A DNA stretch of 17,197 nucleotides from a virus, in the UHGV virus genome UHGV-0182888; one strand, given 5' to 3'. The notes under the pieces are model-generated. The model made no database searches. It was not told the origin of the DNA and worked only from the letters and a program-made list of their open reading frames with translations. The position numbers and the translations under genes are program-made. This document shows positions 8,715-13,161 of the stretch, piece after piece (the stretch's first letter is position 1; each line of letters opens with the position of its first letter).

Positions 8715-9101
8715 TCAGGCGGCTGCACCCGCCGGTTCATATCTGCTGATCGTTATCTCTACCCGACCTTTCGGCACAACGGGTCCCCATTCCACCAGCA
8801 TGCGCTTAATCTGGCTGTCGTCTTCCCAGACACCCGCATGCGTCAGCGCGTCAAACAGGGCTTTGTTGTAATTATCGATATCCCGGCGGCGCGCATCCGG
8901 CGGGTACAGGGTGATTTCTACCGCTGCAAGTTCAGTCGATGGCTTTGGAAGGCGTCGTAATTGCTCAATGATCGCCACGCAGGCAGCGCTCTGGTATTTA
9001 CGGCCATCAGCGCTAATGAGGTGACGACCGGCCAGCGGCCCCTTGTTAGGGGCGCGCCAGTAAGTGTTCACGCTCGGAGGAAAAGGCAGGATCAGTTTCA
9101 C
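8715..9101 (-). CDS. rusA: Holliday junction resolvase RusA
   Basis: 128 aa. LPFPPSVNTYWR … DARRRDIDNYNKALFDALTHAGVWEDDSQI … GRVEITI matches the RusA pattern (PPS.N.Y, D.RRRD.DN..KA.FDALT.AG.W.DD) from recall. Confidence 0.9.
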   Translation of the reverse strand: MKLILPFPPSVNTYWRAPNKGPLAGRHLISADGRKYQSAACVAIIEQLRRLPKPSTELAAVEITLYPPDARRRDIDNYNKALFDALTHAGVWEDDSQIKRMLVEWGPVVPKGRVEITISRYEPAGAAA

Positions 9102-10417
9102 GCGGCCTCTCCCCTCATACTGCGAACAAGTTCAGAAGCTGCAGTAATGATTTCGCTGGTGGCCGTCCGCTCCAGCCAGAGTTGATTGATATTGGCTTTC
9201 AGCTTGTTCTGCTGTGATTCATCCAGCATGTCAGCGCCATCAACCTGGTCGAATACAATTCCAACCTCCAACGGCCAGATACGGGACTCGGGAAGCGGAT
9301 CCGCCACTGGTTTAGCTTTCTCACGGATGTGCATGCGGATGTGGCGAATATTGGACCAACTGGAAACATCCAGGCTTCCCATAGCTGCAATGAAATCAGC
9401 ACTGTTCATGCCATATTCACCGGATGCTTCAAGGGCAACAGTGCGAATACGTTCCGACATATCCAGGCGCGCAGCAGCGTCATCGAATTGAATCGACAAC
9501 AGCCACTCATCCACACCGAACAAAATACTCTCACGAATAAGCAGCTTCGCTTTGTCGATCGTTAATGGTGATACCTGAGAGAATTCCGGTGCTTCGACAG
9601 AATCCGCCGCCCAGGTATGCCCAAACTTCGATTCACTGAATGTGTATTCTTCTTTATCGCCGAACGCAGCTCTAACACATGCCCACGCTTCGACACCGCT
9701 GATATCAAAAATATCTTTCTGGGTGAGTGGCAACTCTGTTTCTGGCTTACCGGCTACTGTTGGTGTGGACGTTGCTGGTTGAGGTTTGCTGGCAGCAAAT
9801 TGTGCCAAAGCCATAAACGCACGCCCTTTTGCCTCCAGTTCTGTACGGTTGATATAGCTGAAACGCTCGCCACGCCATGACTTATCGAATACAGCTATGG
9901 CACCGGCAAAAAACGCGCTGGTGGGTTTTTGTTTTTCGTCAGCAGGTACAAACCACACTGGCAGATCGAACCCAATGCGCCCGCGGATGAATACAATGTG
10001 ATCGGCATCTTCCGGCCACCACGTTTCGCTCGGCGCAGCTTTTATCAGGAATACATAGCGACCGCCCTTTTCGCGCTGGGCTGCTGCGTAGTTCATGATG
10101 TGCGTCATGCCGGTGATCGCCTGTTTCTCGTGGTACTGCGAACGGCTATACGGTGGGTTGCCATAACCTGCACCACCCAGTTCTGCCAGACGTTCAGACC
10201 AGTCCTGTGTCAGTGCATTATCTTCGGCGGTGTACCATGCCGGGCACTTCGCGTTGTCGTCGTCAGCAAACAAGTCCAGAACTAATGGACCAAATAGCGC
10301 GTTGATACCCCAGAAAAGCAGATCCGGTGTTCGCCACTGATCGCCAACCTCTTTCAGTTCGTGGGCTGGTTTGCTGCGCAGTGCCGCCAGCGCCTGGCAA
10401 TATTTGTTTAACGTCAT
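9098..10417 (-). CDS. Phage Dam-like N6-adenine methyltransferase domain (about 180 aa, NPPYS motif) fused to an uncharacterised C-terminal domain of about 250 aa
   Basis: N-terminal WRTPDLLFWGINALFGPLVLDLFADDDN … GYGNPPYS … FIRGRIGF pattern is typical of the phage Dam family (Pfam Dam, PF05869). Single uninterrupted 439-aa ORF. ATGA overlaps with both neighbours. Resembles the YfdM/YfdN region of E. coli CPS-53 (recalled). Confidence 0.8.
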   Translation of the reverse strand: MTLNKYCQALAALRSKPAHELKEVGDQWRTPDLLFWGINALFGPLVLDLFADDDNAKCPAWYTAEDNALTQDWSERLAELGGAGYGNPPYSRSQYHEKQAITGMTHIMNYAAAQREKGGRYVFLIKAAPSETWWPEDADHIVFIRGRIGFDLPVWFVPADEKQKPTSAFFAGAIAVFDKSWRGERFSYINRTELEAKGRAFMALAQFAASKPQPATSTPTVAGKPETELPLTQKDIFDISGVEAWACVRAAFGDKEEYTFSESKFGHTWAADSVEAPEFSQVSPLTIDKAKLLIRESILFGVDEWLLSIQFDDAAARLDMSERIRTVALEASGEYGMNSADFIAAMGSLDVSSWSNIRHIRMHIREKAKPVADPLPESRIWPLEVGIVFDQVDGADMLDESQQNKLKANINQLWLERTATSEIITAASELVRSMRGEAA

Positions 10418-11271
10418 CCTCTGAACCCCTCTGGAATCGTTGTTTCAACCGGACCAAAAGCCATCACATCGCGCTTTTTCGCGCCCCAGTCAGCCCGTTT
10501 AGGCCGTCCCTTCTGCTCCCAGCAGGTAGCGCTTTGCAGATAGCTCTCGAATTTCTTCGGGCCGAACAGCGTTTCCGGACGCATGTACTGGTACTGCTCG
10601 TCGTTCTCGTGCCAGTGCTCATGCTTCAGGTCGATAACAAGTTGCAGGTCTGCAACGCTGTATCCCTCACGCAGTCGGGCACGGATGTTCTCCAGGGATG
10701 TTTTTGATTTCTGATACCGGGATCCGCTGATCTGGTTCAAATGGGTCAGAACCAAAATTGCCTGATCAGTAATCACGACTTCAGGGTCTGGTTGCGCCGC
10801 AACCGGACAAGAGGGTTTTGAAGTTACTTGTGGATCTTGTTTTGATTTTACTGACGGATCCCCGCCAGATTCTGACGGGTCAAAACCGCCATTTTTGCCA
10901 GATTTCGACGGGTCAGCTTTTGAGGTGTCAAAATTTGATGCGTCAGATTTTGACGTGTCAGAATCTGACAGTTGAGAAAATGCGGCAGCCTGAAGTTTCG
11001 CCACATTCAGGCGGTAAACGTTCGAAGCATTACGGTTACCATTACGGCGCTGTGTACGCGTGAGCCAGCCATCTTTTTCAAGCTTAGCGATTGCCGTTCT
11101 GATAGTGCTCGGCCCTGCGCCAAGCTGGCGAGCGATAGTTTCAATAGACGGCCAGCACACCCCCTCATCGCTGCTAAAATCAGCAAGGCGCGCCATGATC
11201 GCGACACTAGACAACTTCATGCCCGACGCCGCGCAACCATCCCATACGTAGCCGGTTAATTTAGTGCTCAT
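10414..11271 (-). CDS. Replication initiator (O-like): N-terminal HTH domain, C-terminal phage replication domain (Phg_2220_C-like)
   Basis: 285 aa. N-terminal HTH-like region (WPSIETIARQLGAGPSTIRTAIAKLEKDGWL). C-terminal VLTHLNQISGSRYQKSKTSLENIRARLREGYSVADLQLVIDLKHEHW … FGPKKFESYL. Iteron-like direct repeats inside the central low-complexity linker. Confidence 0.8.
   Translation of the reverse strand: MSTKLTGYVWDGCAASGMKLSSVAIMARLADFSSDEGVCWPSIETIARQLGAGPSTIRTAIAKLEKDGWLTRTQRRNGNRNASNVYRLNVAKLQAAAFSQLSDSDTSKSDASNFDTSKADPSKSGKNGGFDPSESGGDPSVKSKQDPQVTSKPSCPVAAQPDPEVVITDQAILVLTHLNQISGSRYQKSKTSLENIRARLREGYSVADLQLVIDLKHEHWHENDEQYQYMRPETLFGPKKFESYLQSATCWEQKGRPKRADWGAKKRDVMAFGPVETTIPEGFRG
10844..10975 (-). 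repeat. Iteron array (putative replication origin) inside the O-like gene
   Basis: At least five direct repeats of a roughly 15-bp core GATTYTGACGGGTCA: gattctgacgggtca 10867..10882, gatttcgacgggtca 10900..10915, aatttgatgcgtca about 10932..10945, gattttgacgtgtca 10946..10960, gaatctgacagttga 10961..10975, plus a degenerate copy at 10844..10860. Analogous to ori-lambda iterons within O. Confidence 0.65.
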
Positions 11272-11440
11272 GATCGTCCGTTATCTCCCTGAACTTTTGC
11301 CTGAAATGCTCAAGTGGGCTGAAGCATTCGTGCGGGTAGCCATCACGCAGGTAGATAACGCGTTGTGTTTCTGGTTCCCAGCGGATAACACGGACAGACA
11401 CTCCGCGGTGGTCTTTGAACCTTCGGTTAAGTTCGCGCAC
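11261..11440 (-). CDS. Small hypothetical protein (59 aa, GTG start), translationally coupled to the O-like gene
   Basis: Minus-strand ORF VRELNRRFKDHRGVSVRVIRWEPETQRVIYLRDGYPHECFSPLEHFRQKFREITDDHEH. GGAGGG lies 10 nt upstream of GTG 11440. Its stop overlaps the O-like start (…CATGAGCACTAA…). Not in the ORF track (under 60 aa, no ATG). Confidence 0.4.
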   Translation of the reverse strand: MRELNRRFKDHRGVSVRVIRWEPETQRVIYLRDGYPHECFSPLEHFRQKFREITDDHEH

Positions 11441-11612
11441 TGGCGTTTTGCCCTCCGGTTGTAGACCCCCACAATTGAAACCGCCCTACTGTGGTTACAC
11501 GGAATCCAGCGGTTTGATAATCTGCGTTCATACCGAAACAACGGAGTACCCGAAACCGGGATCATCCTGAGTTGCGGTAGACGGTTAAAAGCCGTTAAAC
11601 TGCTCATGCGGA

Positions 11613-12179
11613 TTATTTCTCCATACTCGAAGAGTTGTTCGCCAAGGCGCCCGGAGCTGCACACTCGCGGGCGTCATTCTTTTCTGGCGCGCAGAAAACA
11701 CGGAATAGCAGCGTCAAATGCTCCTGCCACTTAGCCATTACCTGATAACTGTTCTCTTCAATCTGCTCACGTTCTGCCGGATCAATAACCCCGTCGGCGG
11801 TTGCCTTACGCAGGTACTGCGAGTGTTTGCCAATCCATTCGATTGACTCCATCAGACGCTGGTTGATATCGCCGTTATCAAGATCATCTACTTCCACCAG
11901 CGGAACGAATACACCACCACTACGGCGGGCTATCGCATCGGTGACATACTTAGTACCGCTCGCATCCTGAAGCACCATCGCCCACTCAAGCGGGAAAATT
12001 TGATCACCTTCGTTACGTAGTCGGTTATAGAGTGCATCCGTTGAGAGTTTTCCAGCGCGGTACAGACCAAGCCATTCAGCTGCTTCGGCATACCCACCAG
12101 ACATTTCGGCGATCGTTCTTTTGATTGCAGCCACCAGCCAAGCTGGTTGTCGCTCTACTTTCCAGTGTTGTTTATCCAC
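11613..12179 (-). CDS. CII-like lysogeny regulator (phage 186 CII / Phage_CP76-like)
   Basis: 188 aa. The segment YAEAAEWLGLYRAGKLSTDALYNRLRNEGDQIFPLEW resembles the 186 CII HTH region (…LRNKLNPEQPHQFTPPELW…) from recall. Located directly downstream of cro on the early-right strand. Confidence 0.6.
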   Translation of the reverse strand: MDKQHWKVERQPAWLVAAIKRTIAEMSGGYAEAAEWLGLYRAGKLSTDALYNRLRNEGDQIFPLEWAMVLQDASGTKYVTDAIARRSGGVFVPLVEVDDLDNGDINQRLMESIEWIGKHSQYLRKATADGVIDPAEREQIEENSYQVMAKWQEHLTLLFRVFCAPEKNDARECAAPGALANNSSSMEK

Positions 12180-12207: not shown

Positions 12208-12405
12208 TCACGCAGCCGAATGACTACGCTTTTCATAAAGGGATTGGTTAACTTTCAAATCACCTTTCGTCAGCGCCTGGATCTCAAATGCCCTCCCCTT
12301 TGGGATAACTTCATCCCAGCCCGATACAGATGCGTGGGAGATATTCAGCGCCTTGGCGGTTTTCCCTACGCCACCGAAGTAAGAGATAACGTCATTCTTT
12401 TTCAT
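12208..12405 (-). CDS. Cro-like repressor (small HTH protein, YdaS/Cro family)
   Basis: 65 aa, MKKNDVISYFGGVGKTAKALNISHASVSGWDEVIPKGRAFEIQALTKGDL. Divergent from cI across an operator-containing intergenic region of about 100 bp. SD GAGGG upstream of ATG 12405. Confidence 0.75.
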   Translation of the reverse strand: MKKNDVISYFGGVGKTAKALNISHASVSGWDEVIPKGRAFEIQALTKGDLKVNQSLYEKRSHSAA

Positions 12406-12442
12406 TTTTCCCTCTGGAGTTAGGTCATGCAGTGCATAGATA

Positions 12443-12504
12443 GTAGGATATCTTACATAAAATGGTCAAGCACTCCTACATTAGAAAATGGTAGGATTGC
12501 CTAC
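12443..12504. promoter_or_regulatory. OR-like operator region between cro and cI (14-bp palindromes GTAGG-N4-CYTAC)
   Basis: gtaggatatcttac at 12443..12456 and the perfect palindrome gtaggattgcctac at 12491..12504, with a weaker third half-site (cctac 12475..12479). The second site abuts the cI ATG at 12505, suggesting a leaderless cI mRNA. Confidence 0.5.
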
Positions 12505-13161
12505 ATGAAAATGAATGATCGAATCCGAAGCAGACGAAAAGAGCTGAAGATGACGCAATCCGTCCTGGCAAAGCTTGTCGGGGTAAACCGCGTCACGATC
12601 ACCGGCTGGGAATCTGGTGACTATAAACCTGGCGGTGAGAACCTTCAGGCGCTTGCGGCTGCTCTTGAAAAGACACCGCAGTGGTTGCTGGAGGGTAAGG
12701 ATGACGGGAAACAACAACCGCCAACAATGAACCCAGAGCAGAGATTCGGAATTAGATCAGTTCCCGTTTTAACGTGGGTGCAAGCCGGGGAATGGACTGC
12801 CAATAGCGGTGCGATAACGGAACGAGACATTCAAGACTGGGTTTACACTTCAGCAGCTGTTTCAGAGAGCGCTTTTGCACTAATAGTCCGCGGTGACTCA
12901 ATGACTAACCCAAATGGCGCACCAAGCATCCCGGAGGGCTCTCTCGTCGTCGTAGAACCTGACTTTGGAGATGCCAGCCAAGCAAATGGTAAAATTGTCA
13001 TTGCTCAGCTAATGGGAAGTGACGAAGCCACTATAAAAAAATTCGTCATTGATGGTCCGCTTAAATACCTTGTACCTCTCAATCCCAACTACAGGATGCT
13101 CGAGGTAAACGGCAACTGCCGTTTGGTCGGATTAGTAAGACAAGTGATAATGGATTTATAA
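12505..13161 (+). CDS. cI-like repressor (N-terminal HTH, C-terminal LexA/S24 autopeptidase domain)
   Basis: HTH region MTQSVLAKLVGVNRVTITGWESG. Ala-Gly cleavage site (WVQAGEW). S24 catalytic motifs VRGDSM (Ser) and a conserved Lys (EATIKKF). Start taken at ATG 12505 (MKMNDR…); the ORF-track start at 12427 would leave no room for operators. Confidence 0.9.
   Translation: MKMNDRIRSRRKELKMTQSVLAKLVGVNRVTITGWESGDYKPGGENLQALAAALEKTPQWLLEGKDDGKQQPPTMNPEQRFGIRSVPVLTWVQAGEWTANSGAITERDIQDWVYTSAAVSESAFALIVRGDSMTNPNGAPSIPEGSLVVVEPDFGDASQANGKIVIAQLMGSDEATIKKFVIDGPLKYLVPLNPNYRMLEVNGNCRLVGLVRQVIMDL

Follow-up and report, generated by a model that had tools for sequence, protein, structure and literature searches.

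The window, i.e., the whole stretch of 17,197 bp that was analyzed here, is part of a lambdoid prophage. The genes and signals of its early region are the following, with positions counted from the first base of the window:

12427-13161, opposite in direction to the cro operon: LexA-like cI repressor
12440-12469, minus strand: candidate pR-like promoter upstream of cro (TTGACC-18-TACTAT), a consensus match only
12208-12405, minus strand: cro
11613-12179, minus strand: CII/YmfL-like gene
11261-11440, minus strand: DUF4222 gene
10414-11271, minus strand: replication initiator gene (rep) encoding 285 aa and containing the whole element described below (ORF, Pfam, PHROG)
9098-10417, minus strand: Dam-type methyltransferase, the start of which overlaps the rep stop by 4 bases

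The Dam gene is followed on the minus strand by RusA, an antirepressor, a DUF968/HNH gene, Q, a second methyltransferase, the lysis genes and the small terminase. Between cro and Q no gene for a helicase, a helicase loader or a primase was found, which makes the 285-aa gene the only replication gene of the module.

The 285-aa protein carries both domains of the phage initiators of the HTH_36 plus Phg_2220_C (TIGR02220) type. Pfam assigns HTH_36 to residues 23-70 (46 bits, cut-off 25) and Phg_2220_C to residues 174-246 (83 bits, cut-off 27), and the PHROG matches, i.e., 11896 (E = 4e-81), 428 (E = 1.4e-69) and 391, with E-values ranging from 4e-81 to 5e-50, are named "primosomal protein", "replication initiation protein" and "replication initiation O-like". 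A sequence-only reading of this DNA had called the gene O-like. By PHROG and Pfam it does encode a replication initiator, whereas a kinship to lambda O in sequence is not borne out and the likeness is one of analogy: in BLASTP the best E-value of lambda O against the initiator is 0.81, i.e., there is no detectable similarity, and lambda O belongs to PF04492 (Phage_rep_O, 5.7e-36), a family that the initiator does not match at E<=0.01. The protein is, by analogy, a counterpart of lambda O drawn from a different protein family. An identical protein is present in Citrobacter braakii and C. freundii, and the C. braakii assembly shares the gene order. Public records describe it as "conserved phage C-terminal domain-containing protein" or as "GntR family transcriptional regulator", the latter of which is wrong. 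The C-domain shows a weak PHROG match to "DnaD-like helicase loader" (E = 7e-8); the comparison with DnaD-like proteins gives scores no better than those of generic MarR/ArsR regulators, and DnaD of the Firmicutes DnaD/DnaB primosomal proteins differs in being a host adaptor that is recruited by DnaA and reads no iterons in its own gene.

The protein structure was modeled with AlphaFold2 from a 34-sequence alignment, and a single-sequence model with a mean pLDDT of 43.5 was discarded. A confident winged helix is predicted for residues 1-103 (pLDDT ~90-97) and a confident helical domain for residues 163-260 (pLDDT 93-98), while the linker in between, residues 104-162, is modeled at low confidence (pLDDT 50-58). 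In terms of the DNA the two domains are:

10963-11271, minus strand: N-terminal winged-helix DNA-binding domain, residues 1-103, which presumably reads the iterons
10417-10785, minus strand: C-terminal helical Phg_2220_C domain, residues 163-285, the presumed recruiter of the host helicase (AlphaFold2, PHROG, module exchange)

Fold searches returned only generic winged-helix proteins for the N-domain and nothing among the listed matches for the C-domain, and a sequence search of the PDB with the initiator gave nothing significant. The linker is predicted to be disordered and would therefore be able to carry codons that are dictated by the DNA. It is in this linker, at residues ~101-136 between the N-domain and the C-domain, that the iterons are located. 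The parts of the element, in the order of transcription, are:

10897-10969, no strand assigned: five 13-bp iterons in tandem with a 15-bp period (10957-10969, 10942-10954, 10927-10939, 10912-10924 and 10897-10909; repeat search, TRF, pattern search)
10877-10896, no strand assigned: spacer between the array and the isolated iteron, variable in sequence and fixed in length (33 bp start to start)
10864-10876, no strand assigned: isolated sixth iteron, GTCAGAATCTGGC in gene sense, adjoining the A-rich segment (pattern search)
10839-10863, minus strand: near-invariant block GGGGATCCGTCAGTAAAATCAAAAC with one GATC and a GTCAG half-site (per-base diversity ~0 in 73 genes)
10815-10860, minus strand: A-rich segment of low stability with two 22-nt direct repeats at 10839-10860 and 10815-10836 (repeat search, stability scan)

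The array had been described from the sequence as at least five repeats of about 15 bp, spaced by roughly 14 and 33 bp. It is real and lies at the given place; its exact copy number is six, the 33-bp distance was confirmed, the shorter distance measures 15 bp instead of 14 bp, and a 13-bp palindrome, perfect in GTCAGAATCTGAC at 10957-10969, is the more fitting description of the conserved unit. In a pattern search with <=2 mismatches, GTCAGAWTYTGAC occurs in six copies starting at 10864, 10897, 10912, 10927, 10942 and 10957, i.e., all within 106 bp (10864-10969) and with starts separated by 33, 15, 15, 15 and 15 bp, and no copy was found outside the array in the whole window. The search gave 10 strand-hits compared to 1.28 expected, and 0 of 200 shuffles reached 10. 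Repeat finding returned a 19-mer in five copies (10864, 10897, 10912, 10942 and 10957), and TRF reported a period of 15 with 4.7 copies at 10899-10969 as well as a period of 30 with 1.9 copies and 85% match; the repeat finder, TRF and the pattern search are in agreement on the array. Read in gene sense, the array encodes L-SDSD-TSKSD-ASNFD-TSKAD-PSKSG...FDPSESG, and the minus-strand translation contains LSDSDTSKSDASNFDTSKADPSKSGKNGGFDPSESGGDPSV, matching the repetitive peptide that the sequence-only reading had quoted. DnaA boxes with <=1 mismatch are absent from 10700-11100 and their number in the whole window is at chance level. Searches in Rfam gave only miRNA-like matches far below threshold, caused by the palindromes.

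The architecture is maintained among homologous genes. The homologue set comprises 73 unique genes with N-domains that are >=76% identical, taken from viral contigs and phage records. A logo of 372 sites from these genes reads (G)TCA-R-A-W-T-C-TGA-C, and the sites are almost confined to nt 300-450 of the gene. When 75 unique genes are taken together, neighboring sites are separated by 15 bp in 298 cases, by 33 bp in 69 and by 48 bp in five, and all but one of these genes carry 5-7 sites, the copy number shifting in 15-bp steps. The spacer at 10877-10896 reaches a nucleotide diversity of up to 0.5, yet the 33-bp distance is kept in 68 of the 75 genes. With a period of 15 bp neighboring sites are ~154 degrees apart around the helix, and, judged from this geometry, the abutting packing would put neighboring dimers on nearly opposite helix faces.

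The isolated sixth iteron lies inside the least variable stretch of the gene, with diversity near 0 at all three codon positions, and it is followed in the direction of transcription by the GGGGATCCGTCAGTAAAATCAAAAC block, which belongs to the same stretch. The first GATC is present in 71 of 71 genes with an anchorable block. Each of the two 22-nt repeats carries a GATC in gene sense (at 10833 and 10857); both sites are kept in 66 of the 71 genes. In phiP27, three related GATCC repeats are present. The interval 10811-10851 is the least stable 40-bp window of the gene and lies at the 96th percentile of window instability, although the A-rich segment has only ~62-65% A+T and several intergenic regions are much less stable. 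The stretch 10815-10863 is a candidate unwinding region, a proposal that we make with moderate confidence. Of 65 loci of the window's clade, 53 have a Dam-domain gene <=2.5 kb downstream, compared to 28 of 82 loci with the GAACC-type core described below. A link between the GATC sites and the Dam gene was considered and set aside, since common ancestry of the loci confounds this enrichment and the association is not exclusive.

The 15-bp period corresponds to five codons, the encoded peptide is repetitive, the copy number changes in steps of one period and the linker is predicted to be disordered, so that the array might be nothing but a low-complexity peptide linker of S-K-S-D units that arose by replication slippage and has no role as DNA. 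The variation among the homologues argues strongly against this. Synonymous diversity is 0.380 over 92 codons of the N-domain compared to 0.023 over 22 iteron codons (Mann-Whitney p = 3e-11), i.e., it is ~16-fold lower in the iterons, while amino acids change freely at the tolerated positions (K/N/E/T and S/F/A). Variation is tolerated in the two bases between sites, in the palindrome centers and in the 20-bp spacer. Third-position diversity in the 73 genes is 0.27-0.49 at gene nt 31-300, falls to 0.03-0.28 at nt 301-480, which is the level of positions 1 and 2, and is back to 0.38 at nt 481-510. This loss of the third-position excess shows that ~180 bp evolve as a DNA element:

10792-10971, no strand assigned: segment with non-coding-like variation, in which the third codon position is no more diverse than positions 1 and 2 (codon-position diversity)

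The choice of codons is in line with this. If the codons are redrawn from the prophage's own usage while the peptide is kept fixed, 5000 draws yield 0.28 sites on average and never more than 3, compared to the 6 sites observed, and serine is encoded by TCA in 7 of 12 codons compared to 13% of the local Ser codons. Moreover, the sites show dyad symmetry, which counts for a role as DNA since peptide repeats do not require it, and the 22-23-bp periods found in related initiators cannot encode a peptide repeat. The lambda control for the synonymous-site test, 80 lambda-O loci, was too uniform to validate it (third-position diversity of the N-domain <=0.06), and a replicate with the ST64B clade showed a trend in the same direction at a diversity too low for use. 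An overlapping gene was considered as source of the constraint, since two alternative frames are open across the array. Their stop-free spans range from ~90 to 633 nt among the homologues, i.e., these frames are not conserved in extent and do not explain the constraint; their products are by-product repeats (QNLT/QILT), and the overlapping gene was rejected. The low synonymous diversity, the codon redraw, the co-inheritance with the N-domain and the clade-specific arrays (see below) together identify the repeats as a DNA element and not as by-product of a peptide. The six sites are under purifying selection at the DNA level, and the pure peptide repeat, to which we assign almost no probability on these sequence comparisons, is rejected.

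The iterons are inherited with the DNA-binding domain of the initiator. The phages SfIV (Shigella), ST101-KPC2phi6.3 (Klebsiella) and phiP27 share with the prophage the N-domain (61-89% identity) and the type of iterons; their C-terminal halves are unrelated and their downstream genes are different. In the Salmonella phage 118970_sal3, the C-domain is 95% identical and is combined with another N-domain, which matches no Pfam family, and with a different array at the same place, the 23-bp period of which means that it cannot be a peptide repeat. The C-domain was thus swapped independently of the N-domain and the iterons in SfIV, phiP27 and sal3. Nor do the cII-like, DUF4222 and Dam genes follow the distribution of the iterons, and the initiator N-domain is the only one of the checked modules that co-occurs with GTCAGAWTCTGAC sites. 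Furthermore, 9 of 10 clades with divergent N-domains (8 of 9 HTH_36 clades and sal3) possess their own, different array at the same place. These arrays consist of 2-5 mostly palindromic repeats that start 260-380 nt into the gene, and some have periods that are not multiples of 3; the sole divergent clade lacking a clear array is that of the Acinetobacter phage Phab24. Further relatives with arrays of their own have N-domains that are only 35-43% identical; their arrays comprise 2-4 mostly palindromic repeats and begin at 260-330 nt of the gene. Examples of the repeats and their spacings are:

Stx2a_F451 / SI5: GGGGCAGGAGCTGCCC, 21 and 24 bp
ST64B: GTGCAGGAGATTCAC, 45, 21 and 24 bp
RothD: TGCCATCTGATGGCA, 23, 22 and 24 bp
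Vibrio p42: GGTCAAATTCCGACC, 39 bp (or 17 and 22 bp for a 12-nt core)
Vibrio D72: GTGACAAAATGTCAC, 21 and 24 bp
Stenotrophomonas BUCT709: TATGCCGCCAAAAAGCATAG, 24 and 21 bp

The matrix of motifs by genes is nearly block-diagonal, as would be expected for repeats that are read by the N-domain. Across these comparisons the sites are co-inherited with the N-domain and co-vary with it.

Similar arrangements are known from other phages. In ori-lambda four iterons and an AT-rich tract are located inside gene O, and in Stx phages the number of iterons is six; the number varies between lambda/Stx relatives and thereby adds residues to the linker (PMC7466680). The prophage, for which the sequence-only reading had already drawn the parallel to the iterons inside O, resembles this layout: dyad-symmetric iterons lie in the middle of the gene between the parts coding for the N-domain and the C-domain (gene nt 303-408 here and nt 349-433 in O), an A/T-rich segment lies downstream of the iterons in the direction of transcription (PMC7466680), the initiator gene is part of a cro-cII early operon, the iteron number varies between relatives and adds linker residues here too, and N-domain and iterons are inherited jointly as a single module that sets specificity. 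There are also clear differences to lambda. The sites are 13 bp long and repeat every 15 bp, apart from a single one at 33 bp, compared to 18-bp sites at 20-24 bp in lambda, and the 15-bp spacing compared to the approximately two helical turns (20-24 bp) in lambda and most relatives means that the complex could not simply reproduce the lambda O-some. Compared to lambda, the A-rich tract is less pronounced, and it is built from the two GATC-bearing 22-nt repeats, and where lambda has a P-like gene, the prophage has none and continues with the overlapping Dam methyltransferase gene.

The HTH_36 "O-like" initiators of ST64B, Stx2a_F451, SI5, RothD, D72, BUCT709, phiP27 and SfIV have the N-terminal domain family in common with the initiator. 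As in the window, a clade-specific array of 2-5 repeats directly follows the part coding for the DNA-binding domain; C-terminal halves as well as partner genes can be exchanged. Most of these relatives have iterons 21-24 bp apart followed by a nearly invariant block AGAACCAGTCACTCTTTTGAACCAGTCA, whereas the window's clade shows the 15-bp packing and the different conserved block GGGGATCCGTCAGTAAAATCAAAAC; in many of them a helicase, loader or primase-helicase gene comes next, which is not the case here. For the Francisella phage KIRK, an in silico prediction places an origin inside the Phg_2220_C gene fhv_0043, which encodes an internal amino-acid repeat and contains four repeat units, and the authors drew the analogy to lambda (PMC7924643). 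KIRK shares the C-terminal domain family and the repeats inside the gene with the prophage and differs in that it belongs to another host phylum branch, has another repeat sequence, and no analysis of constraint or covariation was reported (PMC7924643).

In six other HTH_36 clades a near-identical block, cCAGAACC(A/T)(G/A)TCACTCTTT(T/A)GAACCAGTCA-NN-GAACC, was observed directly after iterons that are unrelated to each other; its synonymous positions are identical and both of its flanks are unrelated. A pattern scan found the AGAACCAGTCACTCTTTTGAACCAGTCA-NN-GAACC block next to upstream iterons that form at least 23 different clusters, the phages being those of Escherichia, Salmonella, Klebsiella, Vibrio and Stenotrophomonas. 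The scan was ascertained by its own pattern and so documents the spread of the AGAACCAGTCAC... block and not its conservation. A literature search found no paper mentioning a GAACC-type block. It may tentatively be proposed, as a rather doubtful generalization, that HTH_36 origins are composed of two parts, i.e., hypervariable clade-specific iterons and a much more conserved downstream repeat element, the latter being a core for unwinding/helicase loading or a linker. In the window's clade this core would correspond to the near-invariant 22-24-nt repeats with GATCC at 10815-10863. If this were true, the shared core could be an unwinding/helicase-loading site read by a conserved host factor, and the GATC sites of the window could be methylated by the Dam protein encoded in the gene overlapping rep. 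Another possibility is that the core is a recombination linker of the Botstein type, by which phages would exchange their origin specificities.

The claim that iterons inside the initiator gene mark the replication origin is thus supported in silico by the family of the initiator, the position in the linker, the constraint on the DNA, the co-inheritance with the N-domain, the divergent arrays in other clades and the A-rich segment. The array is probably the part of the prophage's replication origin to which the initiator binds, and this origin would follow the plan of lambda in being embedded in the initiator's own gene. A plausible course of initiation would start with the production of the 285-aa initiator from the rightward early operon transcribed from the pR-like promoter. 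Its N-terminal winged-helix domain, probably as a dimer, would bind the six 13-bp palindromes GTCARAWTCTGAC, five of them abutting with a 15-bp period and one 33 bp further, all written into the codons of the disordered linker. The resulting nucleoprotein complex might destabilize the adjacent conserved A-rich segment at 10815-10863, and the Phg_2220_C domain might bring in the host DnaB helicase, directly or via DnaC; recruitment of the host helicase is proposed since neither a phage helicase nor a loader is encoded in the module. Our inferences from the data described above concern the binding itself and the stoichiometry of the dimer, the site at which the DNA unwinds, the recruitment of the helicase and the activity as origin.

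Sequence data cannot separate an origin from an operator bound by the initiator. In the latter case the sites would serve to autoregulate or block transcription of rep and of the downstream dam-nin genes, while replication starts elsewhere. The evidence for binding by the initiator applies equally to such an operator, the sites lie inside the transcription unit and public annotation calls the protein a GntR-type regulator. We nevertheless consider this unlikely, and, judged from sequence, an operator-only role less likely than an origin: the family matches of the protein are replication initiators and the module has no other replication gene, TRF reports only two tandem arrays in the window, the other being a weak 20-bp one, and there is no other match to the motif, and the conserved A-rich block follows the array in a layout like that of lambda. 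Moreover, the roles as operator and as origin are not mutually exclusive. Alternatively, the conservation might come from the sites of a host protein or of another phage protein, or the segment might be a "linker" acting as crossover point for the exchange of modules between mosaic phages. In support of this, the mosaic junction from the N-domain/iteron module to the C-domain lies just past the element, and other clades have the near-identical block of 28-36 nt at the same boundary beside many different iterons. The co-occurrence of GTCAGAWTCTGAC sites with no other checked module than the N-domain and the change of the sites when the N-domain changes argue against this, a recombination linker would not need six phased palindromes and the segment lacks DnaA boxes with <=1 mismatch, so that these explanations appear very improbable.

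Iterons inside an initiator gene are textbook knowledge for lambda and Stx phages (PMC7466680), and the conceptual surprise is small. Apart from the prediction for KIRK, the literature search found no description of an origin for SfIV, SfII, e14-like phages, the Citrobacter clade or Phg_2220_C initiators, and no experimental binding or origin data for the family of the initiator; the SfIV genome paper lists the replication module and no origin. As a summary, the analysis gives the position of a probable origin to ~180 bp (10792-10971) for a very common enterobacterial prophage family, with >590 viral contigs carrying this N-domain and 14,135 protein clusters in the wider family. The loss of third-codon-position variation inside a gene clearly delimits the embedded cis element here and may serve as marker for other such origins, and the lambda rule that DNA-binding domain and iterons travel together extends to a non-homologous initiator family. 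This might be of use for understanding origin-specific incompatibility or exclusion between prophages, for the design of phage-derived replicons and for a better annotation of these phages.

The number of iteron copies in the linker-coding part of the initiator gene is polymorphic among otherwise close relatives. Across the homologous initiator genes (L005-L084), the KLQ-to-QP stretch is 195, 210 or 225 nt long, i.e., it changes in steps of 15 bp (198-228 nt when measured between the alternative anchors), and the 33-bp distance to the isolated iteron is preserved.

The following genes of the window lie next to the initiator gene or downstream of Q:

9098-10417, minus strand: Dam-family methyltransferase, 439 aa
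11261-11440, minus strand: ORF of 59 aa, DUF4222/phrog_1343 match (E=2e-33)
11281-11664, minus strand: ORF of 127 aa, phrog_1170 match (E=2e-16)
5500-6162, minus strand: ORF of 220 aa between Q and the second DNA methyltransferase
4272-5324, minus strand: second DNA methyltransferase, N6/N4-type

The Dam-family gene occupies the position that the P gene holds in lambda, and its start codon overlaps the initiator stop codon (ATGA). In Pfam, the Dam domain match is limited to residues 19-199 of the protein, and the last ~240 residues have no match. Of the 65 loci of the window's clade, 53 have a Dam-domain gene no more than 2.5 kb downstream of the initiator, and two conserved GATC sites are present within the candidate unwinding region, the A-rich segment beside the iterons. 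Upstream of the initiator, the two ORFs at 11261-11664 share 160 nt, read in different frames, and each has its own match to a phage protein family; public gene calls retain only the DUF4222 ORF, and the 127-aa ORF has its counterpart, by position and size, in orf40 of SfIV. The 220-aa ORF, which has no PHROG match, is situated where the window is least stable and richest in AT; it may be a moron or a piece of defence cargo carried downstream of Q.

Proteins identical or 98-99% identical to the initiator (10414-11271) are present in NCBI records from Citrobacter, Salmonella and E. coli, and one cluster of this protein is found on at least 1000 contigs. They are named 'conserved phage C-terminal domain-containing protein' or 'GntR family transcriptional regulator', names that do not convey a role as replication initiator. 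The initiator of Salmonella phage 118970_sal3 is annotated as 'putative transcriptional activator'. This protein of 437 aa, including an additional C-terminal extension of ~150 aa, shares the Phg_2220_C C-domain with the window initiator (95% identical), whereas its N-terminal domain is unrelated and has no Pfam match. At the equivalent linker position it carries a different array:

L004 3463-3618: sal3 initiator repeat array, ~5 repeats with a 23-bp period

For phage phiP27, the reference genome encodes an HTH_36 initiator, which is followed by a DnaC-like loader:

L086 (NC_003356.1) 1501-2427: phiP27 HTH_36 initiator

Its N-domain is 61% identical to that of the window initiator, and its iterons are TCAGAWTCTGAA. 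The 'P27' O protein was described as lambda O with two substitutions and 13 extra residues (PMC7466680); the 'P27' replication regions of NC_003356.1 and PMC7466680 appear not to be the same.

Six unrelated HTH_36 initiator clades, from phages of Escherichia, Salmonella, Klebsiella, Vibrio and Stenotrophomonas, carry a nearly invariant block of 28-36 nt, AGAACC(A/T)(G/A)TCACTCTTT(T/A)GAACCAGTCA-NN-GAACC, immediately 3' of their clade-specific iterons:

L089 1793-1835: GAACC-type block
L088 1772-1815: GAACC-type block
L090 1811-1855: GAACC-type block
L091 1808-1848: GAACC-type block
L176 1468-1510: GAACC-type block
L177 1500-1545: GAACC-type block
L180-L299: GAACC-type block, further loci

The block encodes the peptide R-T-[SY]-H-S-[FL]-E-P-V-x-E-P, and in the six clades even its synonymous positions are identical, with unrelated sequence on either flank. 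A scan for the pattern itself, which shows the spread of the block rather than its conservation, located it beside no fewer than 23 different iteron clusters upstream. We found no mention of the block in the literature; it may represent an origin core common to these clades, or a recombination linker.
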